A stretch of DNA of 60,140 nt, the filler included, from Hausera hauseri (lineage: Eukaryota), in the NCBI GenBank assembly GCA_046269625.1. It is 11 parts of 11 records of this genome, joined end to end, with 100 filler letters (N's around TTAATTAATTAA, not from the genome) between each part and the next. Parts side by side here need not be neighbours in the genome. Positions count along the whole stretch, not along the records: positions 55,265 to 60,140 come from JBJURY010406590.1; 10 more parts are not named here. One strand, given 5' to 3'. Below, in pieces: positions 247 to 60,140 of this stretch. A model generated the notes under the pieces. It was not told where the DNA came from. It did not search any database and saw nothing but the letters and a program-made list of their open reading frames with translations. Each line of letters starts with the position of its first letter. Position 1 is the stretch's first letter. Made by a program: the position numbers and the translations under genes.

Positions 247-384
247 ACTTACTCCGCTAAAATAAAAATAATGGTCAGTCCTAATACAGATCATCGTTTT
301 GAAACAAAATATTTTCTTTGTCTGATGATAGGATAAACCGATCTGTAATTGTCAGGTTATGCTATCATAAAGTTCGTCTCGGTG

Positions 385-1655: not shown

Positions 1656-1668
1656 ATACGTTATCGGT

Positions 1669-4600: not shown

Positions 4601-5000
4601 AGTTTCATCCACGGGAATCCATACTTTTCCAAATTTTCTGTCTTTAGTGATTTTAACTCCTTTTATTGGGCCAAGTTCTATCAGTTTCCCTGCACTGAAA
4701 TCTATCGCTACGTTTGGCAGTTATCTCAATAGATCACAACCTAATACTACGTCATCCGCTAATTGCTCCATTACTGAGAATTCATGATGAAAAGATTGTC
4801 CCATTATGTGAATTTCCGGTTTCCATCGGAATTTTCTTTTAGACGATTGTCCGAAAACTCCGATACTTCCTGGGTCTGTTGCGGAAGGCGGATATAATTG
4901 TTTTCGTAGGAATTGCCGTATTGAATCATATTTTATCAGTTATATTTCGGATCCTGTGTCTATCAGCGCATAAACTTTCCAATCCTCCAATCGAATTTTT
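1669..5000 (-). pseudogene. pol: pol: aspartic protease, RT, RNase H, integrase (disrupted)
   Basis: ORF fragments 4612-4118 (PR-RT linker), 4088-3579 (RT), 3572-2955 (RT thumb/RNase H), 2674-2135 (integrase core), 2096-1669 (integrase C-terminus). The PR-RT-RH-IN order and motifs are Ty3/Gypsy-like. Confidence 0.93.
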
Positions 5001-5649
5001 GCAAAAGGCCACATGAGGGTGTTGGATCGTGGTCACTTTGTAACTGTTAATGGTAACCTTCGTATTTCCAACGGGTTGGTCGATTAACTGTCTCAGTTCT
5101 CCCATTGTGTACAATTCATTATTCGTACCATTTGTGTTTTCCATTCCTTAATTTTTAACTGGTGGCTGAACATCTTGGTTCTGGAGATTGTGTGCCTCAC
5201 TGCTTCTGTTAAATATTGATTGCGTTTCGTTTGGTCTAGGTACTCTAGGTGAATAGATTATACCGTGATCGTCGATCGTGGGATAAACGGTTTTCCTACC
5301 TTACACAACACCGCATAGTGCTTCGTTCCTTCGTAAGGATCCTTTAAACTAAACGGCTTCCGATAAACGTTTGTCTGGCACGAGCTCATAGTTTGTTTCT
5401 CGCAATCATCATATATAGGTGCCGTTGGCGGCAGTATCGGTAATGGTAGTTTCATAACAGAGTAATTTTTGTGCCTGTGTGACCTAGAGATGACGTCTCC
5501 TGCCTTAAGCTTGTTATTGTCAGAATTATTTCTTCGTGTCTTACTATCTATGTATTTTTGCCCGTAATGGAATATGCGTTTTTTACGTTTTCGATTATGG
5601 TACCCAACGTGTCGTTCCACATCTGGTTTCTATTTACTCTCTTCATAAG

Positions 5650-11400: not shown

Positions 11401-11900
11401 TCATCGTTAGTATTTTACACATTCAATACCAACAAAGACTGCTTTAAGAATACAGGTGTCGGTATCAATGAACATCCGGACAGGTATATCATGTCACTCG
11501 TCTTGGACAGAATAAAGCCGAGAGTGACAATCTTTACAATTCGCCAACCACTGCCCTTTTTGATGTAGTTTGCGATTTTTTTGTCAAGCTTTCTACCTAC
11601 ATCAGCAATAAAATCCTCATAGTATTGCATGGATCGATTTGACAGGTACTATTGATTCCTGTCACCCTGCATATTTTCAAATTCTGAAAGTGCATAATAT
11701 TGCACTTGGCAGTGGTGTTGTTGGAATTTGACCACCTCTGATTCCAACGGGTTACGCACATTGGCGGGTATATCGTTCAGTTGCGTTGCTGTATTCGTCG
11801 ACATGCCCACATTCATGTCCACATACGATCTGTTCAAGTCGTATTTGACAGTAACGGGTAGTTCACACTCCTGCTTCTGTTGCTTCTGATTTTTGTTGTT
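8450..11900 (-). mobile_element. Polinton/Maverick-type protein-primed DNA polymerase B, degraded (copy A)
   Basis: KGSGW, endonuclease-VII-like DH.....YLGAAC, exonuclease FHNSRGY, KGIFPY, DVYLLADVFEAFR, YIDINNPY, YYKLKNNSLYGKTVEN, IAGDTDSF. Boundaries approximate. Confidence 0.9.
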
Positions 11901-24830: not shown

Positions 24831-25702
24831 CGATGTTTGATTCTGGATCCTTCGATGGTGATTTCCGATTCGCCTTTAACAAAACCGTCTTTTTAATGTG
24901 ACTTGCGAATAGATACTCGACGGCTAGGACAAATTTCCAAAAAATCACTATAAATGTCGTGGGTTCGAAATATTCCATGGTTTTCCCTTTCGGAATAAAT
25001 TCGTTAGTCCGCGTTCCGCTGATAATGTGGATCCCCACATGGGAAGATTGGTCATCTTTTGAATAAACCGGAAATCGGTTAGCAAATCCTTACATTCCGT
25101 ATAGTTTGAAAATGAGCAGACGTTTTCGCTTGTATATTGGGATTTCGTTTTACACCCGATTGCGTAGGATGATAACAAAGACTTATGATACTTTCGCCAA
25201 GTTTACCTATAGCGTTACATCGCTGACTATTCGTATCGAGCCTGTTGAGACTGTTTGGGTTCATTGGAATGTTTCCAATAAAACTATCGGTCAGCTTTCT
25301 TTGTTTGGGATCCGTCATTCTGCTTTTCTTGATCAGTGGATTTAAACAAATAGAATTAAATTGCCATTTGTTTATAATTCATTTCTGTCAAGAGTTGGCT
25401 AACATCACTATTGTTGCCTAATTTCGGCGTGTATAATTTTTGTTTTGTTTTGGGAACTTATAAAATTACCCACACAACTAGGTGCTTTTTAATAGTATTT
25501 ATTCAATCACTGCAGTGTTATTTAACACGTTGACGCCAGCGCGAAATTTTCTGCAATCATATATGTACCACCGGTGGTTCATGCAGACGTCAGTGTTAAG
25601 AAAATTAAGAATTTTAACTTTTATTTTGACCAACATTGTGAATTTAATATTATCCATTATTGTTTTATTTTTATTTTAGATTCAGTTGTTGACTAACGAA
25701 TA

Positions 25703-27223
25703 ATGTTACAAGTTATCAACAAACGACTGATCATCATATACATCATTATCTTTACAACTGTTTTTCAAGATGGAGTTTTATTACAAATGCGTATGTTCAT
25801 TTATTATCCACTGAAACACAAATGCGTAGCTCCGAACGTCACCGGAATTACCATATCTGAAGATCAATGTCATTATTTTCATAACGAAACCAAAATCCAA
25901 TGCAACAATTGGACATTTCACGACCCTTGGATAACATCCACTATTGTTTCGGAAATGCAACTGGTTTGTCAATATCGGCCATTGCAATTGATATTGGCTC
26001 CGTTGTTTAATTTAATAGGATCAGCTGGGTTTCTGATTGGTGTTTTTTCAGATTTGTTTGGGAGAAAAATTGTCTTTATAATCGTCGCAATAAGTGATAG
26101 TATCTTGTGGATAATACTGGGTATTATTCCAACTAGCTATATTGCACATGTTTTCGTTATGGGAGTTAAGTATCTATTTATGACAAACACATGTGTCGGT
26201 TTTGTATTTGTGTCTGAAATAACACCATTAAAGTATCGAAACTTTGTAGCACTCAACTACTGGGTATTGTATGGCGTTGGTATTGCTGTTTCATCCGGTT
26301 ATATGAAAGCAACATCACATTGGAGAAGTGCATGGTTAATTTCAGGAGCACCAACAGTCATTTATTTGTTAGGTCCATTCTTTCTTCTGGAAACACCGAA
26401 ATGGTTGCTGATTAACAATCGGTATGACCAGGCTAAAGAAACCTTGAAAAGACTCGGTCAGTATTCGTGTGATGAAGATATGGATAATATTATTAATGAA
26501 ATTGTCAGAAGTGAAGACCGTAAAGTTGGAAAAGAATTGAAGAACTACTGTGCATCGTATGTCCTTGTATTGAGATTATTTATCATAATATTCGCGTCTT
26601 TCTCAATTAACGCAGCTTACCAAGGAGTAGCAACAAATCTCAAATTTGGTGGGTCGGATATTTATTTAAATGTACTTTTTTTGGGCCTAATGGAGTGTCC
26701 TGCTGGGCCATTGGGTTCTTTGGGATACAAGTATATTGGAGGTGTTAGAACAGTTGTTATATGTTTAGTCATCGCATTGGTGTCGTATTCAACAAGCCCT
26801 ACTATGTGGAAACCATCATTAGCGGGCAATGTAGGCGTTGATGCTGTCAGCATGAGTTTGGCATGCATTGCTAAAATAGGTATAACGACCGCTTGGAATA
26901 TTATATATCTGTTTTACGTTTCTCTAAATCCAACAAATGTCAGAAACCTCATGGCAAATATTGGTAACTGTAGTGGTATTATTGGAGGTGCATTCGGTTC
27001 ATTCTTGGGATATTATTTTTTGACCAAAGTATTTGTTGCAAATTTGACATACAGTTCGTTTCTGTTATTGTCTGCTGTATTGATTGGATTATTTATTCCC
27101 TCGGTACAGGAAGGTGAACTACCAGATACCGTTGATGATTGCAAAGATATTCCAAATACGTTTATCTGTTGTAAAACCGACCGTGAACTCGATAAAACCT
27201 CATATGAGAAATTACATGAATGA
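25703..27223 (+). CDS. SLC22/organic cation transporter-like MFS protein
   Basis: 506 aa with about 12 hydrophobic segments; TIVSEMQLVC, SDLFGRK, ETPKWLL, PTNVRN, LPDT motifs. A possible acceptor ttttag near 25679 suggests an upstream exon. Confidence 0.9.
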   Translation: MLQVINKRLIIIYIIIFTTVFQDGVLLQMRMFIYYPLKHKCVAPNVTGITISEDQCHYFHNETKIQCNNWTFHDPWITSTIVSEMQLVCQYRPLQLILAPLFNLIGSAGFLIGVFSDLFGRKIVFIIVAISDSILWIILGIIPTSYIAHVFVMGVKYLFMTNTCVGFVFVSEITPLKYRNFVALNYWVLYGVGIAVSSGYMKATSHWRSAWLISGAPTVIYLLGPFFLLETPKWLLINNRYDQAKETLKRLGQYSCDEDMDNIINEIVRSEDRKVGKELKNYCASYVLVLRLFIIIFASFSINAAYQGVATNLKFGGSDIYLNVLFLGLMECPAGPLGSLGYKYIGGVRTVVICLVIALVSYSTSPTMWKPSLAGNVGVDAVSMSLACIAKIGITTAWNIIYLFYVSLNPTNVRNLMANIGNCSGIIGGAFGSFLGYYFLTKVFVANLTYSSFLLLSAVLIGLFIPSVQEGELPDTVDDCKDIPNTFICCKTDRELDKTSYEKLHE

Positions 27224-28044
27224 CTCGGAATATCCTGTTGTATATTCATTTGAAAATAATTTATCAATAATAATAATTCATAAATAATTTCAAAATTAGG
27301 ATTACTTTTTGTGATCTCTGTTTTGTGTTGCCAATTGGAAAAAATGCTTTGATTCATAAATGCAAAATGCACGTAGTTCAATAAATAATTTGTCTTTTCA
27401 CAATTGTTAAATTTAAAGATATAATTACCCAATTTACGTAAGAGTACAAATCATTTTTGTTATGTTGCTGTGAAAATCGATCTAGTTATGCACTAGTTAT
27501 CAATATTTTAAGAATCCTTCCAAAATTTAGCGGTAATTCATTTATAGTCAAGAAGATTTGAATTTTAATAGACAACGGTGTACGATGTGGCGCCCCATTC
27601 ATGTCAGGAAGGTTTTTATGTATGCGGAATCCGATGGAATGGTCAGATGAAATGAATAACATACGGTTTACTGAGTTTTCGAGTTCAAATTGAGAATTAT
27701 TCGGCGCGTAAACTTGTTTTTGAATGTCTGACACCGGATTCTGATTCTCCATATATGGTTTTCTATCTGTCTACGGTTAACGATTTTACGATTTTTGATT
27801 CGTTGGAGAGGAAAAAACTATGCTGCTTCTATACCATCAACTATGATTCGATATTATTCGATTATCAATAGACCGATTTAAAAACGGTTTGCAAAGTTAG
27901 ATAGAGCACACTTAATTTTATCGATTTTACTTGTTCTCAAGTTCGAATCATAGATATTGGAGTTATCGGAAAATGAATATTATTGATTTTCACCCATTTG
28001 GAATAGTGCACCAAATGTTTCAAATGCACAGATTGAAGAGCATG

Positions 28045-28515
28045 AGTAGTGAGAAAATGTGCTTTCGGTCTATCCCCGGGGAAGGGGAGTAATCGATAAA
28101 TCGATTTTGCACATGTTCCGATCGATTGTGCACACAGTGCACCATCGATCCACAAAGTGCCTAGCAACGGTGCCGCTAGGTACCGTTGCTAAGGGCACCT
28201 TTGCACTTTTCACATATCGATCGCTGCACAGCGCAGTATTGATTGAATCAATTGGGACAAAATGCTAATCTATAGAGCACATCAAGGCGCATCGATTGGT
28301 GCACAGTGCAAGGGTGCAGCACATGTGCAAATGTGCAAAAATCAATAATATTGGATTTTCAAGTTTTCAAAAATCGATCTTTGGGGCTCAAGACCGGGTG
28401 CAATCGCAAGTGCACTTGATGTTGTATATGTTTGTGCTGTTAGAATTTAAATCGATTGATTGGTTTTCGAATAATTCGCAAGTGGGCCAGAACCGCCATA
28501 GGCCTTTCCGGTATA
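28045..28515. repeat. Palindrome-rich interspersed repeat family (ATCGAT/GTGCAC-rich)
   Basis: Shares gtgcaaaaatcaataatat and caacggtg..caccgttg cores with 36355-37161 and 40815-41571. Confidence 0.8.
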
Positions 28516-28615: not shown

Positions 28616-31556
28616 TTCTATTAGGGCTGCTCTATGTTCTGGACAAATACTTAGGGTTTCGATATCCTGGATTGAAATCTCGTCGATAGGTTTCTCTGTT
28701 AAATGTTGGATTCCTTCTTGTCGGATACTTCTTAACTTGGAGTAAAAATTGCAAGTCATATTCCGCTTTTCTGTAAAGTTCGTTTCTTCGATAATTTTAT
28801 AGATTTCTTCCAATATTGTCATTTCTTTCTTCTTCTTCATGAAATTTAACTGTCGTAATGATTCGAACCGTATCCGGATGTCTATTTCTGCTTGTATGGT
28901 GTTTAAGTTACGTGCACTTCTTCTAGTTGTTTTTTCACCGATGGTTCACTTTCCGCGAATTCTTTCTTGCGGTCTTCTATTAATTTACTTAATCTCGTTA
29001 TTAATTCGGACCATTCCGACAATTAGTTGGCGATTATCGGCTTCGCTAATATTGCCTTGTCTAACATTTTATATGCATCTTTCAATTCACCATCTGGACC
29101 TTTTGTGAAATTCATAATTTGGCTAAAATAGTTGAACTCGTCCTTATATTCTTCGATTTCTATAATACAAGCTTTTATTATATATTTGGTTTCTTCATTA
29201 CTCATAAACATGATTCGATTTCTTAAACTACTGATCTGTGATCTTTTTTCATTCTCCATTTTAATGCGACTCTAAGTGCGCACATCGTCTGGTTTCGGCA
29301 AAGGCAATTTTTATCATTTCCATTAACGAAGGAATATCTATCGGGTCTATACCCAATATTTCCAAGTCGATATCTCTTCGATTGCTAACCGGTTTTTCCC
29401 TAAGCCGGTTGATCATGGCATAACGGATTTCATCAATTTTACGTTCTAAGTTACGAGCTACTCTCTTCAACTTGGGATTCGCTTATACAGTGGATAGTAA
29501 TGTTTGTGCTTCAGCGACTTTTACGCCGACATTATCTTCGTCCTTACTCCATCCATCCAAAAATTCGACTTCACTTTCAATCCATGACTCTAATTCATGG
29601 TTCCATTTCGTCAACATCTCTTGCGGCACCTCTTCCGGTTGTCTTACTTCAATTGCTTCATCAAGTTTCCCTTCACTACATAATTTTAAACTCTTGTATA
29701 ATTTTTCCGCAAATTGCTCTTCTTTACCAGATATATTGGTTTGTTTACTGATCTGTTCAAGCCTTTCGAGATTATGTCGGAGTATCTCTGGATCGTGACA
29801 TCTAATTCTCATTCTCTTTAATTCGTCGGCATTCTCCCATGAACGTCGGACCTTCCATTTTCTCACATCCAGATCATTATTATCTATTTCATTAATTTCA
29901 TCATTAATATTTACTATCTCCGGTGTTTTCGACGTTTCTACAGTCCTTTCGGACGTATCTAAGGGCGAGTCGTCTCTGAGCATAGCAGTATAGAAGTCTC
30001 CTTTTTCTTCCGCGTCTTTATTTATGGGAGATCTTGAGCGAGTCTTGGATCTTGTCTTAGGCGATGGGCTTCTGCCTCTGTTTTTTGTTATTTTGAGGAC
30101 TAAAGGTTCCATAAATTCGTCTTCAACTTCATCTGTTATTTTGTCTGTTATTTCTGCGTCTAAATCTACGTTTTGAGATGTTGATGGTTTCTCTGACTGA
30201 GCTATTCCTTGGGGAATAGGTTTCTTGCGCGCCATATTGACATTGTTCGGTGTCAGTGCATATTCCTCTTCAGTTTGTGGCTCTCTTAATCCATGATAAA
30301 CTTCCATTAATCGTAATTTTTCCTAATATTCTTTTCTAGCCTTCATTACTTGAGGATTTGTAGTTTCGCTCAGATTCCTTACAGATCTACGTAGATCTTG
30401 CATTTCAATAATCAAGCTTATATCCCGTCGTTTGTCGTAGATGGCTCCTAAGTTATTTCTAATCATACTTGTTTTGTTCGGTTCTGTGAATGTGACGTTT
30501 CCAGAATTCGGACATGATCGGGCAATGTGCCCTTCTTTTCCACACATAAAACAAATTAAATTCCCATTTCGACCAATCCTTTGTCTGCCATCATCATTTA
30601 CGGGTGATTTTGATCTGTTTGTATTCTTATTCTGGCTCTGTGATATTTGTCTGTGGTCTCCGTCATATCTGTTATCATTATTACGATTATCCGTATATTT
30701 AACATTGGGCCGGTAACCACCTTGGTTTCTATCTGGATTGTAACTTGATTTATGATACAATTTGTATGTATTCCAATTATTACTAGAACTTCTATCGTTT
30801 CTTTGATTCTTATCGTAAGCGTTTTAATTTCTATTATCAAAACCTCGGTTTCGGTTATTATCGCTAAATCGTCTGTTGTATTAATTATCGTTTCTATTCC
30901 GATTGTTGCGGTCATTATTCCTTTCATATTTGTCACCATGCTGCGCATATTTCTAATGCCATTTCTAAGTCTTGGGCTAATTGTAACGTCCTTTCAAAAT
31001 TATCTGGTCTGGCCAAAATTAATTGTGTAAATAGATCTCTTGACCATATGCCATTTATTAACTAAGTTGTCATCATAACATCTAAATCTGGCGGTGTCGC
31101 TTTTTCCGCAGCGTCACGTTCTGCGTCTGTCTTAGCTTTCGTTACGTTAGCTATTCTCAAGGTACTTACATAACTATTAGCGAGTTTCTTCAATGCAAAT
31201 GCAAACTGGGTTACCGATTCACCCTTTTGTTGTACTCTATTTTGAAATGCCATAAGTTTTTGTTGCGGCGTCACTGTTGGCAATAATTTACGGTTTAATG
31301 CTCCTACCAAGAAGGACCAAGATTTCTTTTCATCTTTGCTAAGCTCACTATAAGCATCGGCAGTTAAATTCTTTAGATACAGTGATAAACGTTTTATCGT
31401 TACTTCAGGAGTGAGACTAGCACCTTCTGCGTGCAACTTATAAGTTCTCAAAAAATAGTTTAATTCGTCCGGATCACCATCGTATGCCGGCAGATTCAAA
31501 GAATCTAATGTAAAAATGTCGAGCTTCTGTGCTACGGCTAAATTATCTGCTGCCAT
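28616..31556 (-). pseudogene. gag: Ty3/Gypsy gag with zinc knuckle and long extension (copy Y)
   Basis: LPAYDGDPDELNYFLRTY capsid start, MHR-like RVQQKGESVTQFAFALKKLA, CFMCGKEGHIARSC, then about 1.9 kb of coding fragments without a protease motif. Confidence 0.85.
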
Positions 31557-31865
31557 ATCTGTCTTATTCTTGTAAGATTTATTTTCAAGTTGAGGAAGTT
31601 TAAACTTACCGTTTGGTTCGACGTTAGTTATTTTAACTCTAGTTTCCGAATTTGCTCTGTATATAACTCTACGTGTCTGACGTATAGGTGATTTATCCTT
31701 ACCGTTTATTTGGTTGTCAGTATTCGTACTGAATTATCCCTTTAAATTTAAGTCTGATAACTTATATCCCAAAATTTAAAATTTCTCACAATTACTTGGT
31801 GTAGGTGGCGCTGATCGACGGTATGTCGTTACTTGACTCTAATAGTATCTAGCTAGGCACAAACT

Positions 31866-31883
31866 GTCCTGCTGGGGTCGCCA
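31866..31883 (-). promoter_or_regulatory. Primer binding site of the gag copy Y element (tRNA-Arg or -Ser type, uncertain)
   Basis: Minus strand reads ...ATAACA-TT-TGGCGACCCCAGCAGGAC: LTR end CA, 2 nt, then a TGG-initiated 18-mer. Confidence 0.8.
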
Positions 31884-31885
31884 AA

Positions 31886-32490
31886 TGTTATATATTAGGG
31901 TGGCCCTTATCACTGCCCTCTAGATATAACGTAGTTTACAGATTCGGTTTAACGTTCTCGTTAAACGAATGTGCCAAATATTGAAATATTACGTAAATGC
32001 AATGAATGGATGCCGTGTCCTGTGCGTATGTTAGCAGATCTGGTACATATATAAGTTACGTAAAAATTTTAATACTTAGTGTAAAGTTAATCAGCTTTAC
32101 GAGCCGATGTGAAACTATTCAGAAAAGTTTTTAAAAAATTATAAACGAATATATTAACACAATTTACCCAAAAAATGATCACCAGATTAGTAATAAGTCT
32201 AATAATTGATCTGGACCAACTGAAGTACGATTACGTCTCCTCGATTAGTTTTCGCAGTGAAGTTTCAAATTCAAGTCGTTTTCGCTCTAATCGACTCTAC
32301 AGTCGATGTCAAAAATTCTTTTCTCCTACCAATTTAGCTGCGTCTTATATACAAATCAGTTCAAGGTGGGCGTTGTTTAATTTCAATTTCGCATGTGGTC
32401 CAATGATTGATTTCAATTTCGCGACATTTGTTTAATTTTTCTTTCAATTTAAAATTTACCATCTGCTACTTTCTAATTTGTTTAACACAT
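31886..32490 (-). repeat. Putative 5' LTR (far boundary uncertain)
   Basis: Ends in ATAACA next to the PBS; TATA-like TATATAAG on minus near 32344-32351. Confidence 0.5.
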
Positions 32491-32649
32491 TATTAATTAT
32501 AAACCTATCCATTTCATAAGTAATTCTAAAAAATTTCTAAACTAATATGTACAAATAAACAGCTGTCTCCACAATGATCAATATTCTAATTGCTATTTAC
32601 AACATGCTTTTATGTATTCATAAAGCCAGTATTTTTAATTTTTATTAAC

Positions 32650-34353
32650 TGTTTCAGTCACGAATCACCCATCATGTATTGCAATTGATGTACATAAGAA
32701 AAACACTGGAATCTTATTTCACATTTTTCTATTGCATTTTCCGACTTCCGTTGAAAAATATTGTTTTGCACTTTTGTCCACACATTCATCCTAGTAAATT
32801 CCATCACCTGAATCAATTTCCAACCCCTGCTCAACTTTTCTGTTTTTCTTTCTATTACTTTCTTGCTTCCGTCATTCATTTTTCATTTATTCTGACTGCA
32901 CCATTCGACTCACGAACATTCCGCGAGTCGGAAACATTCACCAACGTCTGTACTTAATCTTCTCCTAGTCTCAAGACAATGCTGGATCTCGCCCACTTTT
33001 TTGACCGATTTTCCTGCTTCACCCATTTACCCAACCGCCTTAGTCCCCAAATTATTCGAACACCCGTACTCTATTCTACAAATCCACACATCTATTACTG
33101 CTCAGTTTTTGCTTGTGAAAGAAGTTGCTTTTTTCTTTGGCATTTCCTGAATTCCCTTAAGGAATACTGCTGCGTGCTGCTCATCAATGAATTTCCCGTG
33201 GTGGAATTGACCAGAAACTGTTCATTTTCCAGCAGCAATGGTTCTATTTCCCGTGTTTCTCCCCCCTCTGGATGAGATCCAGAATATCTACTTACCGATA
33301 GCTAAAAATTCTTTCTCCACAATTGAATGTTTGTTTTGTTCTTGACAACTTGCGACTTAAGAAGCATACAGATTTTTCTCGTCCATTAAGAATTTGAGTT
33401 AGTGCCGCTGAAATTCCATATCCTGATGCATCGGTCGTGGTAATTGTTGAGATATTAAAATCTACATTAGAAAGTCAGAGGAATGCAGTTAATCAATGCT
33501 CGTTTTTCCGTGTCAACCGTGTTTGTTTCCTTCGTAGTCCAGTCGAACGGCACATGATTTTTGAATAATTCGAATAAAGTAGACGTTAATTGTGAGAAAT
33601 CACGAATGAATGAATAACATATGACAAATAATCAATACTTTCAATTATATCTTGTCGCAATAATCTAGTTATTTAGTCTTCGAACTTAATTTCTACTGCG
33701 AAAGGAATTCGTCTTCGTTTTTTGAATTAACATTTCTGGACTTCCGGGTTTCAATTTAGCAAAAAATCGAAATCCTTATATTGCTGGAAGTAGTTCTAAA
33801 TTCCACATTTCAGTAGTTTCTTCTTTCGTATTAATTGTTCCTTCATGATTTACATCTAGTTCATTCACCTATCCAAATGAATTGNNNNNNNNNNAGGATA
33901 GAAATGACATACATTCCCAAAACTGCCTTATTTGTATCCGTAATGAGGAATTCAATTACCCAGTGATTTTCCACTAAAACTGCATTTGATATCTGGTATC
34001 CAGTCTCTCATTTTTATTTCCGTCCCATCAAAATTTTTGCATTTTAAATACCCAATTTTCTGTTATGCTGTTGGAAAATATGCACTATATTTCTGTTCAA
34101 GTACAATTGATACATCCGGGCCAGTATCTATTAAGAATTTTCATGTTTTGATTCCTTTATCCGTCTGTAGTGTAATATCCGCGGTTGGTTTTGTGACTTT
34201 CTGTAGCACACTTTTAGATAATTCTTGATTTATTGTATAGATTTTTGATTCGAGCACTTAGCTTGTCACGTTTTCTTTGCCGACAAACATTTGATATGTG
34301 ACCTTGCTTTTTACAGACTGAACATATCGCATTTCGCGTAGGACAATGAGATT
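32650..34353 (-). mobile_element. Highly degraded Ty3/Gypsy pol remnant
   Basis: Protease FLIDTGPDVSIV near 34103-34138 and RNase H TTDASGYGISAALTQ near 33397-33441; RT largely missing. Confidence 0.7.
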
Positions 34354-36354: not shown

Positions 36355-37161
36355 CAATTGGGAAATGCTCGGGACAACGGTACCATTGGGCACCGTTGCC
36401 AGGGAACTTTTGAACTTTTCACATATTTGTCGCAGTACGGCCCAGAAAATGGTCGAATAGATTATGACCAAGTGCTGGTGGATAGAGCATGTCGTGGTGC
36501 ATCGAGCTGTGCTCGGAGAAAATCATCTGCACATGTGCGAGGGTGCAAAAATCAATAATATCGGTTTCCGATCAATCCTAGGCTGTACAGCTACAAGAAT
36601 GTAAAAATGTAAAAGTGCCATGGCAACGGTGTGTAAAGGCACCTCCGCCTTGAGAATTTTCCGATTTGTAGTGCACCGCATGTGACATGACTATTTTATC
36701 AATTTAATCAAGTCTGCACCATCTGGCATTTATTTGAAAACCAATCGATCGATTTAAATTCTAACTACACATTCGCATAGAGAATCGATTTTGTACTCGA
36801 TTGCACACGGTACCCTGCGCCAATCATCAATATTGTAATTATCGGAAAACCGATATTATTGATTTTTGCACACTTGCACATGTACAGTGCACCTGTACTG
36901 TGAACCCGTCGATGTGCACTAATGTGCACTATCGATTAGCACTTTGTGCTAATAGAATCGATCCCTACTGCAGTGTGCAGCGATCGATAAGCGAAATGTG
37001 GAAAGTGTGGTTAGTAACGGTGCGTAAAGGCACCGTTGCCTGGCACATTACCGATCAATAGTGCACCGAGTGCACTATCGATTGGCACATGTACAAAATT
37101 GATTCAACCATTAGCAGTTTCTGCGGGGGAGGTGAGGGAGAATCCCCATTTTTCCCATACT
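36355..37161. repeat. Palindrome-rich repeat family, two units in inverted orientation
   Basis: 36365-36572 aligns to the reverse complement of 36841-37050. Confidence 0.8.
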
Positions 37162-38567
37162 GACCGCAACGTCTTCAAGGCTGGTGTCTCCATTTTTAAA
37201 TTTTTTATACCAGTAGTAAGCCACATCCCTCCTCACCATACAATGACCTTCCACTTCAGATATGGCTTTAAAGGCTTACCTTTTTCCAGAAAAAACGCAG
37301 AAACACTCGATTTGTATATTTTTCTTCAAACATCTAGAAGGTGTTTTGTTATATTAGTAAGCAATTTGTAAACTTGCAATAATTATTAATTAATTATTGG
37401 ATTTTGTAAGCAGTACGAATTTAAATGAAATTTCGAAACTTACATTGGTCAACGTTGCCAGAAGTGAGTTAATGATCATTAACCCTATCAGTAAAATATA
37501 GGATATACTGGTTTGCAAGAACATGTGAAATTGAAATAATTGACGACCATGAATGTTTTGACCAGACTAGTTCTTTCGAAACTCAAACTATCAAAAGGAA
37601 TATTCTGGATTCCAAGTATATAACAAAACTAACGATGGATATTGATTCACAAAACAAAACAAAGTTTTTCCGTTAAGGAAAATAAAGACTCAATGTCTAA
37701 TTCTGTGGACCAAACATCATAAATCGAAATTTAATTTATTTCTGATAAATGTTTACAAAATATAGATTCGAAGAAAAAATTAGTTATGATAAAAGATGAA
37801 GAAAATTAACCTTTTGAATGTGTACAAGTGGATTGTATTTATACGTTTATATTCAAAGGAATTTATTAAGCAGTGTTCAATACTGATAATATATTTAAAG
37901 TCAATTTCGATGATTCAGAGAATTGAGGAAAAGCTGATAAGAGCAATTCTGAGATTCAACTTGTCAAATTGTTATTGGCTGTTACAAATATCAGCAAAAC
38001 ATCTACAACTTCAATGTCTGTAATAACTTCACTTTGTAACTACATTGTATAATATGAATGTAAATTTTAAATATATTACACAATCGCCTTGTGATATACT
38101 TGTGACAGAATTTTTGGTATGACCTGAGTATTTTGACATGACATGAACGATAAACCGGAAATCCGACATTCTTATTAGAAAAATTAAGGAACAGCAAAAT
38201 GACACAACATTTAGAAGTCCATATTGCATAATCATAGCTTTGTTTGCAAAATTTCTTTTTATATTATTAACGAACATAAAATTTGGTGCCTACAGATCGT
38301 ATAGGGCTTGCAAAAATCTGAACAGAAGTAAGATGCCGTTCATTGTAAATATTTTAATAAACGATAAGACAAAAATGTACATAATTAAAGGCAAAATATT
38401 TTCGTCAAAAAATGAATCAATGATATTTGGATGAATTTTCATGCGTATATTTATTCGAAATATTCAATTAATTAAAATTTAAGGAAATTTTATTATTGTT
38501 GTCAATATATTCCTAGAATTATCAAATTTGTTTTTTAATACTTATTTTTATTCATACGACTTACCAA

Positions 38568-39029
38568 ATGCCCAAACCATCTCGTATCTTTTTAATTAGA
38601 ATAAAGAAAGAATTGGAATGGCTCAATGAAGACAAAGATTCGTTAGTCAGTGCAACTCCAGATGAAAAAGATATGACCAAATGGACCGCAGTTATTCAAG
38701 GTCCTCCAGGTACTCCATATGAAGGAGGAAAATTCAAACTTCTACTAACATTGCCAGACAACTATCCGTTTAAACCACCAAAAGTTGAAGTCCAAACAAA
38801 AATATTTCATCCAAATATTAAAGGAAATCGTATTTGCCTTGATGTGCTACAGGACCAATGGACTGCTGGATTGAATATTCAGAAAATTTTGCTTTCAATT
38901 CTATCATTATTGACTGATCCAAATCCATCCAGTCCGTTAAATGGGGAAGCAGCTACATTGTATCAATCAAACAAAGAAGCATACAATCGAACGGTTAAAG
39001 AGTGGATTATAAAAAATGAATCCCAGTAA
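38568..39029 (+). CDS. Ubiquitin-conjugating enzyme E2, UBC4/5 (UBE2D)-like, intronless
   Basis: RIKKEL, GPPGTPYEGGKF, YPFKPPKV, FHPNI..GNRICLDVL (catalytic Cys), PNPSSPLN. Confidence 0.95.
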   Translation: MPKPSRIFLIRIKKELEWLNEDKDSLVSATPDEKDMTKWTAVIQGPPGTPYEGGKFKLLLTLPDNYPFKPPKVEVQTKIFHPNIKGNRICLDVLQDQWTAGLNIQKILLSILSLLTDPNPSSPLNGEAATLYQSNKEAYNRTVKEWIIKNESQ

Positions 39030-40814: not shown

Positions 40815-41571
40815 CCCGGTCACATGTCCTAATCATCAATATTGGAAATATCGGAAATCCGATATTATTGATTTTTGCACACTTGCACGTGCTACGCACC
40901 TGCACAATATATATCAAGGTGCATCTCGATGTGCTCTATCTACCTGCACTTGACCCCAATAGATTCCATCACTCCTACGCTGCACAGTGACCAATATGTG
41001 GAAAGTGAAAGTGCCTTGGCAACCGTATCCAAGAGCACACTTAGTCGCGTATTTCACTGAACGATAGTACATCAAGTACTCTACCCGCCAGTATGTGCCA
41101 TATTCATATTATTGATTTTCAATTTATAGCAGAAAGGCCTATGGAAAGTCTGTCCCACTTGGCAATTATTCGAAAACCAATCAGTATATTTAAATTCTAA
41201 CTGCACATACACAGTGTATCATGTGTGCTTTCGATTGCACCTAGTGCCGTGCCCTAATAATCAATATTGGGATTATCGGAAATCCGATATTATTGATTTT
41301 TTCACACTTGCATATATGCTGCACACCTGCACAGTGTACTAATCGATGCCCACAAATGTGCACTATCGGTTAACACTTTTTCCAGATCGATTCGATCAAT
41401 ACTGCATTGTGCAGCGATCGATTTGTGAAGTGTGGAAAAATGTGCTTAGCAACGATGCCTAGCTGCACCGTCGCCTAGCACTCTACGGATCGATAGTGCA
41501 CAGTGCCCACTATCGATTTATCGACGCGCACACCCCCGAGGGTGAGGGAGAACGCTCATTTTTCCCCTACT
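40815..41571. repeat. Palindrome-rich repeat family, tandem units of about 425 bp
   Basis: atcggaaatccgatattattgattttt recurs at about 40850 and 41275; ends in catttttcccctact. Confidence 0.8.
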
Positions 41572-44267: not shown

Positions 44268-45690
44268 CTAATCAAATTGTTTGTTGCTCATCAGAATCGA
44301 TTCCAGCAAATGATTCGACAGAAGTTTGAGCGAATTACTTCGAGCTTGTGATTCGATGGGACTCAAAGTTTCACCGGCATTTTTCTCTGGTGAATTTGCA
44401 TTATCAGTTAATGTTGTCCGGTTGTCGAGTTGTTCAAGTTCTATGGTAGACGTTCGAACTACAATGGTGGTCTCCTTTCGTGGATACTCTGGTTGGTCGA
44501 CTGTCTTCTCAGTGTTCTCTGCTTTAATGGTTTCGGGAGATTTTGAATGATCTGGACTTGGGGATTGTTTCTGTTGGATAGTATTAGCATATGGTTCATG
44601 TTCGGTGGATCGTCTACGTTGTGTGCCTGTGGAATCTTTCTTTGGATTCGTGTTAGTAATCACAGATTCTCCTTTCTCAGCTTCGTTTAATTTCGGTGGA
44701 TTTTTCTGATTAGCACTTTCTGCATTCTTCCGATTGTCCATTAACATTTGATGTTCCGTAGATAGTCTACGTTGTGTGCCTGTGGATTCTTTCTTCAGAG
44801 TCGTGTTAGTAATCACAGATTCTCCTTTCTCAGCTTCGTTTAATTTCGGTGGATTTTTCTGCATAGCACTTTCTACATTCTTCTGATTGTCCATTAACAT
44901 TTGATGTTCCGTGGATAGTCTACGTTGTGTGCTTGTGGAATCTTTCTTCAGAGTCGTGTTAGTAATCACAGATTCTCCTTTCTCATCTTCGTTTAATTTC
45001 GGTGGATTTTTCTGCATAGCACTTTCTACATTCTTCTGATTGTCCATTAACATTTGATGTTCGTCTACTCGGCTAATGCTACCTGCATTGTTATCAACAG
45101 CAACTTGATCCTCTTTACTAAACTGCTCCACACTTTTTGCTCTCAAATTTTCTAACTCATTTGTCAGAATCCCCGCTACAAAACTGTCAACAAATATTTC
45201 AAGTGAATGACGTTTATCCCTCAGAATACGAGACGACGTTTGGTCAACATCTGCACATTGATTGCCTTCTTTCTCAGCTGTTTCTTCTTTGGGATTTCTG
45301 TTGAAATCCTCCGTATTGTTTGTGTTGTCTGTGTCGATTTCATTGGGGTTATTTCGGTTGTCCATAACATTTTGTCCATTCTCATTCTCAATTATTGTAG
45401 TCGTTTGTAGATCATGAAGGAACCCACCAATTGTTGATGTTATTGACTCATTGGAATCATGACGAGTTACCAAAATAAAGTCTGTCTCCTTCTGCTGGTC
45501 CTCTCCATTAGAATGGACAGACTGATTGGATACTTCATCATTAGCGTTTTCATTGTTGCTTGTTGTTGGTTTGTCTTTATCTTCTGTGTACGTTGTTACT
45601 GCTGTTGTTAAACTGTTCTTTCTTGGTTTGTTTTGATTGGGCTTTTTACTTTTAGAGGAGATGGATTTTGATGACTTCTCACGTTGTTGT
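44268..45690 (-). CDS. Large terminal exon of an unknown low-complexity protein with 51-aa repeats
   Basis: Open frame of more than 470 codons; probable acceptor ttttcag at about 45691. The ORF extension to 45899 runs into repeat sequence. Confidence 0.65.
44598..45063 (-). repeat. Three tandem 153-bp coding repeats
   Basis: aacatttgatgttc at 44743, 44896 and 45049; unit EHQMLMDNQKNVESAMQKNPPKLNE.EKGESVITNTTLKKDST.TQRRLST. Confidence 0.95.
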
Positions 45691-47169: not shown

Positions 47170-50100
47170 AAAATAAAGATCACAAATGTCAACGATCTAG
47201 TTGGACTGAATTGCATGTTTGCACTGATCTGTTTGTGAACACTAAAAGTGTGTTATCTCAAACGCCAGTGTCCGTACCCCAAACTCTTATTTCGTCCCAC
47301 CCACTTTCGCTTATCATCATTGCATGATAAAACGACTTTTGTGTTGGTCACCATATACAGATAATGCTCAATTGATCAGATGATCGTTTGAGATGCAACA
47401 GCCTTTGACTGTCCTTCTTCTTTATAGATACTGCGATAATCACCGTGATTTATTTCCGTCTGGGCCAAATGAACTCCTTTGGCGCGAATTTTCGGTCCAC
47501 ATTCAGTTAAAAGGCTATAACCTTTTGGCCGTAGAAATACCCATTCCCACAGTGAAGCCGACCTTCACTTCCATCCTTGAATCAGACGATTTGGTTTACG
47601 ATGGCGTTGGTGTACAACGGATGATTCTGTGGGTAATTTGACGCCCAGTAATCCGTCTGCCATCATTTGCCGCAGTAGTTGTTCGCGATTGATGTTTCCA
47701 ATTCCAAAAAAAACTGTCTGTATCATCGGCAGTTATATTGATCCTGCATCCGCCACCGCCGAACATTTGCCGGTAACGTGCCAAATCGCGATACTGCAGC
47801 TCATACATCCGCAACTTGCTTAGGTCCAATACCACTTGTCTTACATAACTTGGTCGGTCCAGTACGACTTCTTCCTTGCTTAAAAGCACGCCAACTAATC
47901 CATCAGCAGTGTGCATTGATCGCCTGAACTGTGCCTTGCTCATGTACATGACAAACCGCTTTTCGCTACTCTATAGGTGTACACTGAGCTGCTTTTTCAG
48001 ATTCTCTACTGTTTTTCCGTAGGGCGAATTGTTTTTCAGTTTGTAATAGTCTTTTTCAAACTTTGTACAAGCTGCAGCTCGTTTTTCCGAATTCCGACTG
48101 ATGTACGGCTTGAATATCGGAGCCAGTGCGAATCGGACTGCTCGATGTAGCCGTGTGACGCGTACACCCAATTGCATGTAAAATTGCAACATACGCCAAT
48201 GACCTATGTAATTTTACTTGGGTTCATGCGTCACAAGGAGCTTCTTCAATTTTGAGCCCGGCGGACTTATGCTAACTGGTGCGCCCGGCAGTTCATCCAG
48301 AAAGTTATGCAGCTCATATGATACCACGAGATAGACTTCCATAAGGTATCCGATTCAGCTGTTTTCTGTTATCTAGCCTGCTCTCGACAGATTTTCCAGT
48401 GTTGTATCCAGGTCCTGTTTGTCAACTACCCATTTGAATGAACCCATACGGCAAGGGTTGCGAAAGCGCCCAGCCGTACAGGTTATTAATGTCGATATAC
48501 AACAGTGATATGGTATCATCACTGGTTACATAATGCTTGTTGACAAATGTCATGCCGCCACAAATACAAACATCAAACATTCGGTACATTTCAGGGTCTT
48601 GCAACAGCTCGATATCCCGATCCAGTGATATCAGAGCTGATGCCCAACTCATTTCGTATTTTGAGTAAAAGTTGATTGGCTCCAGCCTATCTTTTGCCAA
48701 CGCGTTAGCTCGAAATGTCTAAAACACATCGGCTAAAATGTACACGTCCAATTTCAGATCCTGAAGCATGTACTCCAACAGGTTTCTGCAGCCAAGCTCT
48801 GCCAAAAACAATTGTGCTTTGTGATGTTGGTCTTCTGTGATACCGGGCCATTGCGGTGGTAATTTGTCTATCGTCTGGAGCCGCTCGTATGATATCGCAA
48901 AGTCATACGGGAATATGCCTTTTCTACGTGCAATGCGTGGGGAACTGAGTCAATGTTAGCGGCACATCTGGCAAGGCATTTACCAGCTTTGCCAGAGATT
49001 CATTGAGAAATTGCAATAAGTCGATGAAGCGTACATGGAATCGGTTAATACGAGCAGACAGTGACAGGTATTTCTCCATCGTATGCGGAATTATGGATAG
49101 TGCCCACTGTGGAAATCCGTTTATGGCCCATTTTAAAATATGGTGACAATCATAACTCCGAAAGTTATGAAAAATTACCGGCAGGAATGGCCGCACACGC
49201 CTTGCCAAATTGCACTAATTGCATGCTGCTCCGAGATATCGACCAGTAAAATGGTCATGATCCGATACGAGCCGTTCCTGTGCATCAAACGGGAATATTT
49301 TATGGCACAGGTAACATTCGTCTGTGACTGAAAACGTCAGGCGTTCATCTTTATCTGTCCGCATCAGAAGTTTATTACTATTTCTACTGTACCAGCTTGC
49401 GATTCCCGTTTCTATTATTGTTTCTATCAGCTGCAGGAAATCACGTACACAGTTCCAGCCATGAAAACATAATATCGTGGATGACCTGCGACTTTTATTG
49501 GGACAACCAACATACCGACGGCGATTGGAACATGTTTTTGGTCATATATGTTATGCCGTGGTAAGAGCTTCGATATCGTCATATGCTACACATGCCGGGC
49601 TGTCTGTTTTTGACCAATCAGTGAATCTCAGTTCCTTTTTGTCAGGCATGACAAACATTGTTGTTCCCGATGACTTTTGTCTGCATAGTGTCACATATTT
49701 CTCCCATGTTCTTTCCGACCTGAATCCATGCAGACATACAGGACACCATTTACAATGTATCCATTTTGGAGGAAATGGTCATGCTCAATGTTCAGTAATC
49801 TGTCAAAATTTGTCACTGCATCGTAATGGTACTTTTCTTTTCGTTCCAGTAGCAACAAATTTACTGAGTGGAGGCCATTTTGGTTCCGATTGCGATAGAT
49901 TATATTCACATGACGATTTTTATAAATTTCTTCATCCGCTGGTATTTCTACGATTGTGTTGCGCCGAAACACGTTGAATGCCAGTGTAGGATTACTCCGT
50001 TCAAAAGCCGAAATAGTTTTGAGTTTCATTGGCATCCAGCTTTCATCGAAATCCAATTCGGAAAATATTTCCGATAATGTTTTGGACGAGATGCATTATG

Positions 50101-50322
50101 TTTGTCCACTTTGTCATATTTCAATACCGACAGAATACTGTAAAGAAAACAGTATTCATCGTTAGTATTTTTTACATTCACTACCTCCAGAGACTGCTAT
50201 AGAGCTACAAGTATCGGTATGAATAATATCCCAGACAAATATAATATGTTAATCGACTTTGTTATGATAAAGCAGAGGGTGAAAATTTGTATAATTCGCC
50301 ATCCACTACCATTTTCCGTGTA
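47170..50322 (-). mobile_element. Polinton/Maverick-type pPolB, degraded (copy B)
   Basis: FHNFRSYDCH, YIDINNLYGWAL, YYKLKNNSPYGKTVEN, ADDTDSF, HDHFTGRYLGAACN. Colinear with copy A. Confidence 0.9.
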
Positions 50323-55264: not shown

Positions 55265-58200
55265 CATTTCCATTTAATTCCCTTCTTAAGTAACCGATAT
55301 AAAGGTGCATTTATTTTTGAATTAGCTGACACATAAGTTACATAATATCCTCATAATCCTAGACAGTGCCTTAATTCTTTCAGGTTTTGTGGTTCCATGC
55401 AATCTGATATCTTGTTCAATAATGATTTATCTGGTTTCGATTTTCCTTCCCCAACTATATGGCCAAGGTAGGATACTGAGTTCTGAGCCCATTTTCATTT
55501 CTTTGGATTCAGCTTCAATCCGGCTTGTTCCAGTCTCATTAATGTGTATTCCATATCCTTTAAGTGTTCCTCTTCGGTCCTTAATGTTATCATTACGTCG
55601 TCTAAGTACGCAAAAGCATGGTCCAGTCCCATTAGCATTTTATTCATCATTCTCGTAAATATGGCTGGTCCAGTAGTAATACCGAACGGCATGACGTTAA
55701 ATTTATAAACACCATCGTGTGTTTTGGATGCTATCTTATAACGGTCTTCGTCCTCAATTTTCACCTGCCAATATCCGGATTGTAAGTCCAGAGTGGTAAA
55801 CCATTTTGCTCCTCAGAGTCGGTTTACAGCCTCCTTTACTGACGGTAGTGGTAAGGAATCTTTCATTATAAGATTATTTAAGGCTCTGTAATCGATACAA
55901 AATCGATGTTTTGTGGTACCTTTTTTCTTAACCATCAGGATTGGTGAATACCAAGATCTATAGCTGGGCCTAATTATGTCGGCCTTAAGCATTCGTTCGA
56001 CTTCCGTCGTTATTTCGGGCCTTAGCGAATGTGGCGGAGGGTACCATTTTGGCATTTTCTGATCATCTAAGTCTATTTCTTCATTCGAACCCGGCCTTTT
56101 TTTGAGCGGAATAATTAGCCTTAACGCTTTTGCTCTCCCAATATCTTCTTCGTCCTTGGCAATAATCGATTTGTAACGGCATAATAATTCGTAAAATCGA
56201 CAGTAAAATTCGGGGAAGAACTTAGTTTCGACGTGAGGTGGGAATTCGGCATACTTATAAGGCCTTTCTTCGATAGTTATCGACGACACTATACGTATCT
56301 CTTAGAGTCGTATAAGCGCGAAGCTTGACGGGAGTCTGCGCATTTTTTGCTATTCTGATCGGTACACGACCGGAGTGTACCCTTGTCAGTATGTTATTAA
56401 GTATTATATTCGGATTTAATGTCTCCTTGGTTCGAAATATACCGGTTGATCGTCATCTTGCTGAATTTGTGCGTAAATTATTAATTCTCTTCTTGGTGGA
56501 ATACTTTCATCTACTGGTATCCGTACTTATCCAAATTTTCTATCCTTAGCGTTTTTCACCTTTATTTGGTCTGATTTCTATTAACTTTCCTGTTTGTAGA
56601 TCAATTGCTATATTTGGTAGTCTCTTCAATAGATCGCATCCTAAGACGACGTCGTCGGTTCATTGTTCCATAACTGCAAATTTATGACGAAATTTTTGTT
56701 CAACTATTTGGACTTCTTGGTTCCATTTAAACGTCGGTTTTGACATTTGACCAAAAGCTCCTGTACTTCCTAGGTCTTTTGTAGGTGGTGGATATAATTG
56801 TCCTTTCGGCGTTTGAGGTATTGAATCATTCTTAATGTAAGACATTTCGAATCCTGCATCGATTAAGGCATAAACGTCCCGATCTTCGCTAATGATTTTC
56901 GTGAAGGGTCTTCCTTCTATTATTGTTCCGAAACAGTTTGTTGCTACTTTTGGACGTTTAGTCGCCGATATTTTATGTCCATTGATTCGGGCAATTGTTT
57001 GTCTTAATTCTTCGTTTGGCTTTAACTCGTTGTTTTCAATGCTTAATTTTTCCGTTTCATGTGTACTAATTAATGGTTTTCGATTGTCAGTGTGTAGTTC
57101 GGTATTCTGGAAGGTTTTTAACCTTGGATTGTCCCAAACCGTTGATCTAGTTTTTATATTCCGAGGTTCTCTCGGAGAATACAACATTTTGGGACCATTT
57201 GTGGATTGTCGGTGACACATTTTCCGTAGGACTTTATAGCGTTTCGTTCCTTTATAAGGATCTTGTACATAACTGTAATTTTATAGATTTCCGTCTGATA
57301 TGAACTCATTGACCGTTTATCCAAGTCTTCGTAGACCGGAGCGGTAGGAGGTAGCATAGGCAATGGTGCTTTGATGAGAGTACGTCTTGTGTCTGTTTAT
57401 TCTTGAAAGTACTTCGCCTCCCTTAGGCTCGTCATCATCTGAATTATTTCTTCGTGTATTAGGTTTTGTAAAGTTCTGCTTTCGCAAGAATATAGGCCTT
57501 CCTTTTCGCTTACGATTATAGTAACCGACATGGCGTTTTACATCCGATTTCTATCTATTCTATTCGTATGCCTTTAAGGATTTTCCAAAGGGCGTTATGA
57601 TTGCCGTCAGTATTTTACATGAAAATCCAGTCAACTTAAATATCTCTTATCCATTTATTACTTCTTGGATAACTGCCTTAATCATTTGTATCAAGAAATA
57701 TATCGTCAAAAATCCATATGCGGATTGAACTTAGATCAAAAATCTTCCCCAAATTTTGTATAGTATTTCCGTGGTTACTCGCTGATAATGGTTTACGCCA
57801 AGTAATGATTCCTATTTAGCCTGATATCGGGTATCGTCTACTACAGAAGCCATGGTCCGGTTTAATTCATGTGTCTGCTGTCTAAGTGTGAACATGGGTT
57901 CTCCTAAGCTTGCCTTACAATTCTTAAGAATGGTTGGTTGTGTCGCGTTATCCAACAACACTCTCATTAATGGTCTAGCTAATCTTGGGGTATTCTGATA
58001 AATAACAGGGAGTTCCTGAATGCAGCGTTTTTCCTCCACGTTGATAGATACATCTCTTTTCGCATTCGTAAGTTAACAGTACTTCGCCTGTAACCCGACC
58101 GAAAATTCCTTCTCTCACGGGAATTATTGGAGAAGCCAGTTCTGGGTTGGCATATATCAGAGCCAATTTTGTCCTCATGATTTCGGTATCTAATTTACAG

Positions 58201-60140
58201 TCGTTAGTTATTATTTTGTGGTACAATTCGGCTATTCCGACTTGCCCTTTGTAGTAGAAGTAATCGTCGCTGTTTTTTACATAATCCTTGATTCGGACAT
58301 CCTGCGTTTCTAATTTGTAAGTTTTTGCATTTATTTTCGTTTCTGCGACGAAAAATGCTTTGTAGTTAGTGACGAATATCACTACATCACAACGTGAGAT
58401 CATCTCCTTTTTAATAAATTTCAACTTATACTGATTTGAGATTAATATAGTGGGTGTAGGATGTTCTGATACGTCCTCACGTGTCCTTGAGTTGGCATCC
58501 GATTTATCCACATGTCTTTTTCCTGTAGTCTCATTAAACTTCAGTTCTTTAATTTTAATAAAATTACAACTTATTCCAGAAGGCGGTTCCCATATTATAA
58601 CAGAACTTCTAAAAGCACAGGTTCCGTCTTGTAAATGACACTTCTAATTTTCAGTTTATAACTTGGTGACACTATGGAACATTACTTTCTGTGATCGCAT
58701 TTCCGATTCGTAGAAATCCACGACTACCACATTCGATTGTAATCCCTTTCCAGTATCATATTCTGCTCCGTAACAATGTCCGCTATGCATGTCTAACCTT
58801 CCGGCCACTATCTTGTATGCCCTAATTATCTTTCCGGGTTGCATTTCTAAATCCATATTTTCCCACTGTACCCTTCCAGTCTCCTTAGCTTGTTTGCAAT
58901 GCTGGCGTTCTAAATTCATTGGGATAAGCGGAGTTGTTGGCTTGATTATAGAGGAATGTCCGTGTACTAATCCACAGTGAAAAATGCTACGTGATCGTCT
59001 CAGCATTCATTCCATCTCATCCAACGATATCAGTTCTTGTTGTTGGTACAAGAAATAATTTTTCTCTCTTGTTTCTAACTTGTGTCGTCTGGCATCTTTG
59101 CACACTTCTAAGTCCATCAGGGAATATCTCTGTCCTAATTTAAATTTTTCGCAGTCGTAGACGGTAGCAGCGCTTATATGCTTTACTAACATCATCAAGG
59201 TGAGTAGGCTGATTAACCAATTTGATTCATTTTTCCGGTAGCCAACATCCTCCGTTGTTAGATTACGTAACATATCATCGAGTTTATTACTGGTCTGTCT
59301 ACCTTCTTCCTTGTCGAACAGTCTTGACCAATTTATTTTGCAGGGCAATCTTCTCGCTGCTTTTTGTACTAAACTTATAACTTTATTAATCTCATTCTCT
59401 CGATTAGAGTTGATCTTAATAGCTAAGTATAGTAATACTTTTCTCAATTCCTCGTTGGTGTTCTCTATTCTTTCTCTATCTTTTCGATTACTGATTCATC
59501 GGTTAAGTTACTTTTCGATAGTTTAAAACGTGAACTTCTCATCATACTAGCTGCATAGAAAATTATCTTTTCTCTGTCATCTAGTGTATCACCTCGAAGG
59601 CTCGAATAATTTACAATTCGTATCAAATTCTTCATTAACTCACTTAATTCTTCATTATCTGTGCTGAAAGTCGGAATTAACATTTTTCTTAGTTTTCTAA
59701 TCAATTCTCCATTATAGTCTACTTCTCGCGTTTTCTTATGCCTTCCAACTAGACGTTTTGGCCTTGGCCTTTGGTGGTTATTTCACTCAATGGTACTAAA
59801 TCTATATCGTATTGTTCCTTATCTTTGTCTGTTCGTAAATATTCGAAATACATTGCAGCGTCTCGGACTCCCATAATTTGTCCTACGCATTGTTCCGTCT
59901 TGGCTTTGCGTTTGGCTTCTTCTTTTGTCTGTTCGTTAGCTATTATTGCCACTATTCGATTCGTTTCGTCGGGGATAATCCCGACGTCTATTAATTGTTC
60001 TAAATCATCGAGTATTTTACCTCTAAAGTAAAATCTATAATTTAGCTCGTTTGTTCCGCCATTGTTTAATAATTAGTCTCTTAGATCTTTTACATAGGAA
60101 TGTGTAGTTAACTCCATTCTTTTTCGTCCATCCATTCGGA
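55265..60140 (-). mobile_element. Chuvirus-glycoprotein Ty3/Gypsy element, copy 2
   Basis: Same order as copy 1: upstream coding region, signal peptide plus VYDC (in ORF 59447-59007), glycoprotein fragments to about 57580, PPTAP, protease LIDAG, RT (FCIDYRALN, MPFG, YLDD). Confidence 0.92.
59940..60138 (-). pseudogene. Ubiquitin-like domain within the retroelement's upstream coding region
   Basis: Manual translation RMDGRKRMELTTHSYVKDLRD*LLNNGGTNELNYRFYFRGKILDDLEQLIDVGIIPDETNRIVAII, in frame with ORF 59952-59749. Confidence 0.65.

Follow-up and report, generated by a model that had tools for sequence, protein, structure and literature searches.

Giant Ty3/gypsy elements of planarians, known as Burro or GYPSM1, are described as carrying an envelope gene (env) that lies between gag and protease and shares their frame, within one open reading frame (ORF) of 4,873 amino acids; their env is related to the fusion proteins of mononegaviruses, and ubiquitin-like and Bcl-2-like domains lie upstream (PMC6431247). 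GAG-ENV-POL errantiviruses with an ENV of the HSV/gB type (HSV, herpes simplex virus) are documented in Nematoda, Bryozoa and Platyhelminthes (Chary and Hayashi, PMC13524379), where the nematode endogenous retroviruses (ERVs) of Sacco et al. 2022 are cited as a metavirus with env before pol. The Anakin elements of mosquitoes, which belong to BEL/Pao, carry a chuvirus glycoprotein (PMC7642597). Here we describe two decayed copies of an env-bearing element in a 60,140-nucleotide stretch of DNA from Hausera hauseri (assembly GCA_046269625.1), referred to below as the window, which strings together 11 short contigs with spacers of N between them. In both copy 1 (1-7578) and copy 2 (55265-60140), an env matching Pfam family PF24664 lies ahead of protease and reverse transcriptase (RT), in the same frame, in an element of Ty3/gypsy order. 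This order is not new, being the Burro/GAG-ENV-POL layout already published (PMC6431247; PMC13524379, in the parts available).

Layout and kinship of the two copies

Both copies are encoded on the minus strand and run from a signal-like segment through the PF24664 glycoprotein, a transmembrane segment and a linker to an aspartic protease and RT. The copy 1 glycoprotein begins with an internal signal-peptide-like segment (7414-7470, from a hydropathy window), followed by an ectodomain (5829-7413; PF24664, E=2e-27) that contains two stops and a frameshift at its end, and by the transmembrane segment and tail (5633-5827; PF24664 positions 543-609) with one private stop. An in-frame TAG, which the codon alignment places in both copies, occupies 5630-5632. 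Beyond it lie the linker (5009-5629, defined by translation and alignment), with a PTAP motif at 5417-5428, and an aspartic protease with its DTG motif present (4718-5008; Pfam RVP, E=0.0016, below cut-off). Copy 1 continues through RT and RNase H (3078-4001; RVT_1, E=6e-31; RT_RNaseH_2, E=1e-16) into the zinc finger and core of an integrase (2297-2815; Integrase_H2C2, E=9e-17; rve, E=5e-12), so that the Ty3/gypsy order of protease, RT, RNase H and integrase is present in whole.

The element in copy 2 extends beyond 59447, up to the window end. A weak ubiquitin-like stretch lies upstream of env (59968-60117; Pfam ubiquitin, E=0.0095, 16 bits, cut-off 25.4), and this region weakly matches the same region of the relative P0003 (E=0.004). 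The internal signal-peptide-like hydrophobic segment (59160-59216, hydropathy window) lies inside a longer chain, since the frame is open upstream from 59495. The predicted class III fusion glycoprotein ectodomain (57751-59159) is broken, matching PF24664 in two pieces, and carries four stops, one frameshift and a 174-base deletion, with 67% identity to copy 1. It is followed by the transmembrane segment and short env tail (57554-57748; PF24664 positions 547-604) with three private stops, the common TAG (57551-57553), a basic and proline-rich linker in the env frame (56915-57550, from translation; PTAP motif at 57337-57348), an aspartic protease with an altered active-site motif (56672-56914; RVP, E=0.0035, below cut-off, aligning with the copy 1 protease) and RT (55453-55932; RVT_1, E=5e-35). 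Copy 2 follows the same pol order as far as its contig goes, the contig ending at 55265, where RNase H begins. The initial annotation had described an independent contig with the same order and clearly diverged nucleotides, and both statements hold: the contigs are separate, the Pfam order PF24664-RVP-RVT_1 is found in each, and blastn identity between the copies is 69% for the glycoprotein and 74% for the protease/RT region. Both contigs end inside the element.

Downstream of the copy 1 integrase a decayed frame of about 400 codons (678-1877, minus strand) was observed, with no match in Pfam or among the relatives; it is possibly an accessory domain of the element.

A monomer model of the copy 1 ectodomain, with X placed at its two stops, had a mean predicted local distance difference test (pLDDT) score of 85. 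Among viral structures it matched best the glycoprotein of a chu-related virus (TM-score 0.67, E=3e-34), and all 40 of the 40 PDB structural matches listed were herpesvirus gB (best E=1e-13); as modelled, the glycoprotein has the class III fusion fold of the gB/chuvirus type. A PDB search by sequence found no relative and word-index protein searches with env gave no matches, while a full HMMER search recovered 246 proteins at E<=0.001; among the 150 of these that were listed, no long match exceeded 34% identity. Twenty-two relatives were scanned with Pfam: a protease follows the glycoprotein in the same protein in 10 and RT as well in 5, a CCHC or Retrotrans_gag match lies upstream in 3, and none has RT or integrase ahead of the glycoprotein. 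Two cluster members are full chains from env through protease, RT and RNase H to integrase, of 3003 and 4844 amino acids. An env tree with 46 rows places both copies within an 18-row group of env-pol polyproteins that has a Shimodaira-Hasegawa-like approximate likelihood ratio test (SH-aLRT) value of 97, and 25 stand-alone glycoproteins form a separate group (SH-aLRT 94).

Among the relatives, P0002, P0006, P0007, P0010, P0014, P0152 and P0155 have two or three consecutive aspartic protease domains after env, where the window copies have one. P0003, a complete polyprotein from env to integrase, bears the label of a hypothetical protein from a Flavobacteriaceae metagenome-assembled genome, and its contig is likely eukaryotic and binned there by mistake.

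The best RT matches are 38-48% identical and have Pfam sets of the gypsy type; among those with names are 297-like and Ty3-I pol. RT trees were built without a BEL/Pao or copia outgroup, the second holding 30 of 120 non-env matches (where "no env" means no env in the same protein) after removal of one badly framed row of the first; the same two subgroups of relatives that are seen in the env tree reappear in them. The search of public runs for the element returned one run (share 0.18), with no RNA run among those listed. In this run, which may be the window's own source, 13,945 contigs match copy 1, in each of its 30 bins, and half are less than 90% alike; this figure, which is not a copy number, points to a large family. 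DNA scans for more loci found none in metagenome contigs, viral contigs or prokaryote genomes.

Likeness to Burro was judged from its description (PMC6431247, available parts). Shared with it are an env in frame with protease, although here both copies have a shared in-frame stop after the env tail where Burro has a single ORF, the relation of env to mononegavirus fusion proteins and a high apparent abundance. The weak ubiquitin-like stretch upstream of env, with its Pfam E-value of 0.0095 below cut-off, may be a counterpart of the one in Burro. The region between protease and RT, dUTPase-like in Burro, matches the same region in five env-pol relatives (E 1e-12 to 1e-6) and gave no Pfam match for a dUTPase-like domain. 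In 4 of 16 relatives (P0004, P0005, P0015 and P0018) a Bcl-2-type GGW motif occurs a short way ahead of the env signal peptide, as described for Burro. With the GAG-ENV-POL errantiviruses, as set out in the available parts of PMC13524379, the copies share a gypsy pol, a gB-type env before pol and an ectodomain predicted to lie between signal peptide and transmembrane segment, and the cysteine and motif pattern resembles, by eye and unaligned, six Schmidtea ENV rows of supplement 2; those elements, however, are intact with gag and often with long terminal repeats (LTRs), whereas the copies here are decayed fragments. Anakin, in the parts of PMC7642597 available, is alike in bearing a chuvirus-type glycoprotein on an LTR retrotransposon but belongs to BEL/Pao, whereas the pol here resembles that of Ty3/gypsy. 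The element is thus filed as a GAG-ENV-POL-type gypsy element, Burro-like in working, and is not called a Burro.

Selection on env and pol, and decay of the copies

Maximum likelihood estimates of omega (dN/dS) between the copies, made with one 55-base block outside the codon-model analysis, were 0.039 (0.024-0.060) for the ectodomain over 487 codons, 0.060 for the transmembrane segment and tail, 0.088 for the 96 alignable linker codons after the TAG and 0.062 for RT over 244 codons, values that show strong constraint and do not rank env against RT. Omega=1 was rejected for each, at p ~1e-91 in the ectodomain. Differences in the 487 ectodomain codons fell 115/71/280 by codon position, and block-wise codon pair counts gave proportions of nonsynonymous (pN) and synonymous (pS) differences of 0.17 and 0.83 for the ectodomain and 0.09 and 0.67 for RT. 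Such an uneven distribution argues against a duplicated dead insertion, which would differ evenly at the three positions. The comparison of glycoprotein with RT that had been proposed for this locus therefore places both far from 1, and the earlier inference that the arrangement spread by transposition under protein-level constraint is supported by the omega values, by the codon-position pattern and by relatives with the same order in other genomes. Because purifying selection on the glycoprotein is strong and synonymous sites are saturated, the copies are, on this comparison, taken to represent two old diverged subfamilies and not sister copies, each of which would have kept a working-type env while mobile.

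Decay followed on separate courses in the two copies. In 1204 aligned codons there are 9 stops in copy 1 and 12 in copy 2, with exactly one in common; outside these counts lay six short blocks (5' end and linker), two blocks of 16-19 bases and a 139-base linker block with no assignable frame. The statement that each copy has different lesions is borne out by these stops and by the finding that at every junction between aligned blocks, from signal peptide to RT, at least one copy is in frame, with no common frameshift. As previously noted, the copy 1 stop at 6613-6615 is absent from copy 2, and the G of TGGGGA lost in copy 1 near 5826 appears as a one-base gap relative to copy 2 at 5829/5828. 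Copy 2 is itself not open, having a frameshift at 58055/58054, an in-frame deletion of 174 bases at 57881/57880 and stops in the ectodomain and transmembrane region. The proposal that ectodomain, transmembrane segment and linker were ancestrally in one frame is upheld in that one copy keeps the frame at all junctions; the common TAG means that this was not necessarily an uninterrupted ORF. From the private stops, about 4-8% neutral change per site is estimated in each copy since its death, the amount by which each would have decayed separately, and much of the amino-acid difference in RT is explicable by it.

We hold with considerable confidence that the window contains two decayed members of separate old Ty3/gypsy subfamilies with a class III fusogen gene before and in frame with protease/RT, a confidence that covers this explanation whole, including working as an enveloped, Burro-like element. 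Several points weigh against it. No gag, LTR or primer site was found on either contig, so that a complete element is not shown; the approximately 900 bases upstream of the copy 2 env have no gag match, and there is no long repeat within 1-2200 of the copy 1 contig. Synonymous sites are saturated, and the grouping of the copies with env-pol relatives in the RT trees is weak (SH-aLRT 74-80, bootstrap 29). Upstream of the copy 2 env, a region whose frameshifts could let a decayed domain of this type escape detection, no counterpart of Burro's Bcl-2-like domain was detected: against a profile from four relatives the segment came 23rd when ranked together with 500 shuffles, the hhalign probability was 0.5%, and there was no Atlas/Pfam match. 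The shared TAG, finally, does not fit a simply continuous ORF.

It might instead be supposed that the glycoprotein of a negative-strand RNA virus was inserted once in a dead gypsy element and later duplicated, or that an assembly error joined the two. The glycoprotein is of the family seen in chuviruses and their relatives, such inserts adjoin gypsy fragments in arthropods (PMC10084718, in the parts available), and both contigs end inside the element, leaving no flanks to compare. An omega far below 1 across env, transmembrane segment and linker, together with the codon-position pattern, runs counter to this supposition, as do the presence of the same join on two separate contigs and the placement of the nearest env relatives among env-pol polyproteins and not stand-alone glycoproteins; we consider it extremely improbable. 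The omega values across these three regions refute it, and the block alignment of the two contigs, the codon analysis and the env tree together lead us to reject a segmental duplication, a single viral insertion and misassembly alike.

The TAG shared by both copies

The single common stop, TAG at 5630-5632 and 57551-57553, lies between the tail of the transmembrane region and the K.DV.RHVGY.NRKRK linker, at the point where the PF24664 match ends. By default the frame is read as having been open throughout, like that of Burro and of the relatives found, with the TAG a coincidence of decay, and to this reading we give an even chance; that the stop is ancestral, through either readthrough or a separate RNA, is rated a little short of even. 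The nematode ERVs of Sacco et al. 2022 are said to have one continuous gag-env-pro-pol ORF. Stops between retroelement ORFs are known from MuLV gag-pol, SIRE1 pol-env and Tca2 gag-pol (PMC2194720, available parts), which resemble the present case in an in-frame stop with same-frame coding behind it and differ in that none of these stops lies between env and pol; here, moreover, no pseudoknot-like or CARYYA signal was found.

Were the TAG the real env stop, Pol could be made by occasional readthrough, which would yield abundant Gag/Env and little membrane-tethered Env-Pol, the recoding point having moved from gag/pol to env/pol. This account is tentative, though a serious possibility. It draws on the TAG being the sole lesion common to both copies, at the same codon and at the end of the glycoprotein family match, and on the in-frame stops of MuLV, SIRE1 and Tca2 between gag/pol or pol/env (PMC2194720, available parts). 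In the 16 codons directly behind the stop, differences counted by eye fall at nine third, three first and no second positions, a pattern that indicates protein constraint on the frame there. In simulations weighted by the ease with which each codon mutates to a stop, a shared stop arose within the tail and alignable linker in 2% of runs and within 15 codons in 0.6%, both places being chosen post hoc; against this, a shared stop anywhere arose in 20-27%. Readthrough is further opposed by the lack of a stable fold on the 3' side of the TAG (z -1.3 to 0.0, with a folding tool that does not model pseudoknots), by the absence of a CARYYA motif, by the freedom of third positions there to vary, by another TAG that copy 2 alone has three codons upstream, and by at least 10 of 22 relatives having one ORF through the region. 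The codon is, besides, readable in only two copies; none of the 40 of 1737 public-run contig rows listed falls on the TAG, which gives no evidence either way. Three relatives (P0005, P0018 and P0021) end in or shortly after the transmembrane region, and from the proteins alone a true stop, a lesion and a contig end are not distinguishable. Alternatively, a real env stop could be combined with Pol expression from a separate or spliced RNA, by an internal promoter or with the AG of the TAG as splice acceptor. The gag/pol stop of Tca2 need not be read through, its junction having shown promoter activity (PMC2194720, available parts), and an in-frame methionine codon lies approximately 70 codons downstream in both copies; protein-level constraint nevertheless starts right after the stop, ahead of that methionine, and the bases before the TAG, rich in purines and with several AG, do not resemble an acceptor; we regard this route as improbable. 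Literature searches, whose coverage excluded most subscription journals, returned no paper on a stop between env and pol, and the main text of PMC13524379, figures and bait files aside, makes no mention of readthrough.

Proposed working, neighbouring sequences and meaning

The element likely worked as an enveloped, Burro-like element. One transcript would be translated from an upstream gag/accessory region into the internal signal peptide, which would send the ectodomain to the endoplasmic reticulum, the transmembrane segment bringing the chain back into the cytosol. The linker, and behind it protease, RT, RNase H and integrase, would be made tethered to the membrane anchor of env, because they follow the transmembrane segment in the same chain, and the tether would hold Pol at the membrane where particles bud until the element's own protease cut the Pol parts free. 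Budding particles are predicted to carry a fusogen of their own and might pass from cell to cell; with a leaky stop, the scheme would gain control over the ratio. The motif PPTAP(I/V)Y is kept in both linkers, its PTAP presumably being like the budding motif of enveloped viruses. In 11 relatives with a locatable linker, PSAP was found in one, YPxL-like motifs in four and PPxY in two, counts that have no chance control.

Elsewhere in the window, 22329-24812 and 28656-31109, on two further contigs (22312-28515 and 28616-34353), share 69% identity, with a gag-like part at 30323-31733; at its start the CCHC gag on these contigs gives a match to the N-terminal ends of relatives that bear env (P0015, E=5e-14), and the contigs may represent the missing 5' half of such an element. 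Another contig pair has 3.1 kb in common at 73% identity (8493-11560 and 47242-50315). An SLC22-like transporter gene, resembling animal SLC22 proteins, is present as a single uninterrupted frame at 25697-27223 and a ubiquitin-conjugating enzyme gene, likewise uninterrupted, at 38517-39029; both may be retrocopies. A repeat of approximately 380 bases occurs on the contigs of these two genes (28121-28515 and 36710-37083), with a third copy at 41125-41517. Three tandem units of 153 bases (44595-45062) lie within a 546-codon frame that has no Pfam match.

These data add one more lineage, on a long branch, to the gypsy elements with env before pol, confirm the published layout and provide codon-level evidence of selection on the fusogen. 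By what means these elements keep Pol from being made in equal measure with Gag and Env is left unanswered in the available parts of PMC6431247 and PMC13524379. If the TAG is a real stop that is read through, the gag/pol ratio switch would now stand behind the envelope gene, which would suggest that env was captured upstream of an old gag/pol switch, and a leaky stop behind env, if conserved, would resolve the question of the Pol ratio for one lineage.

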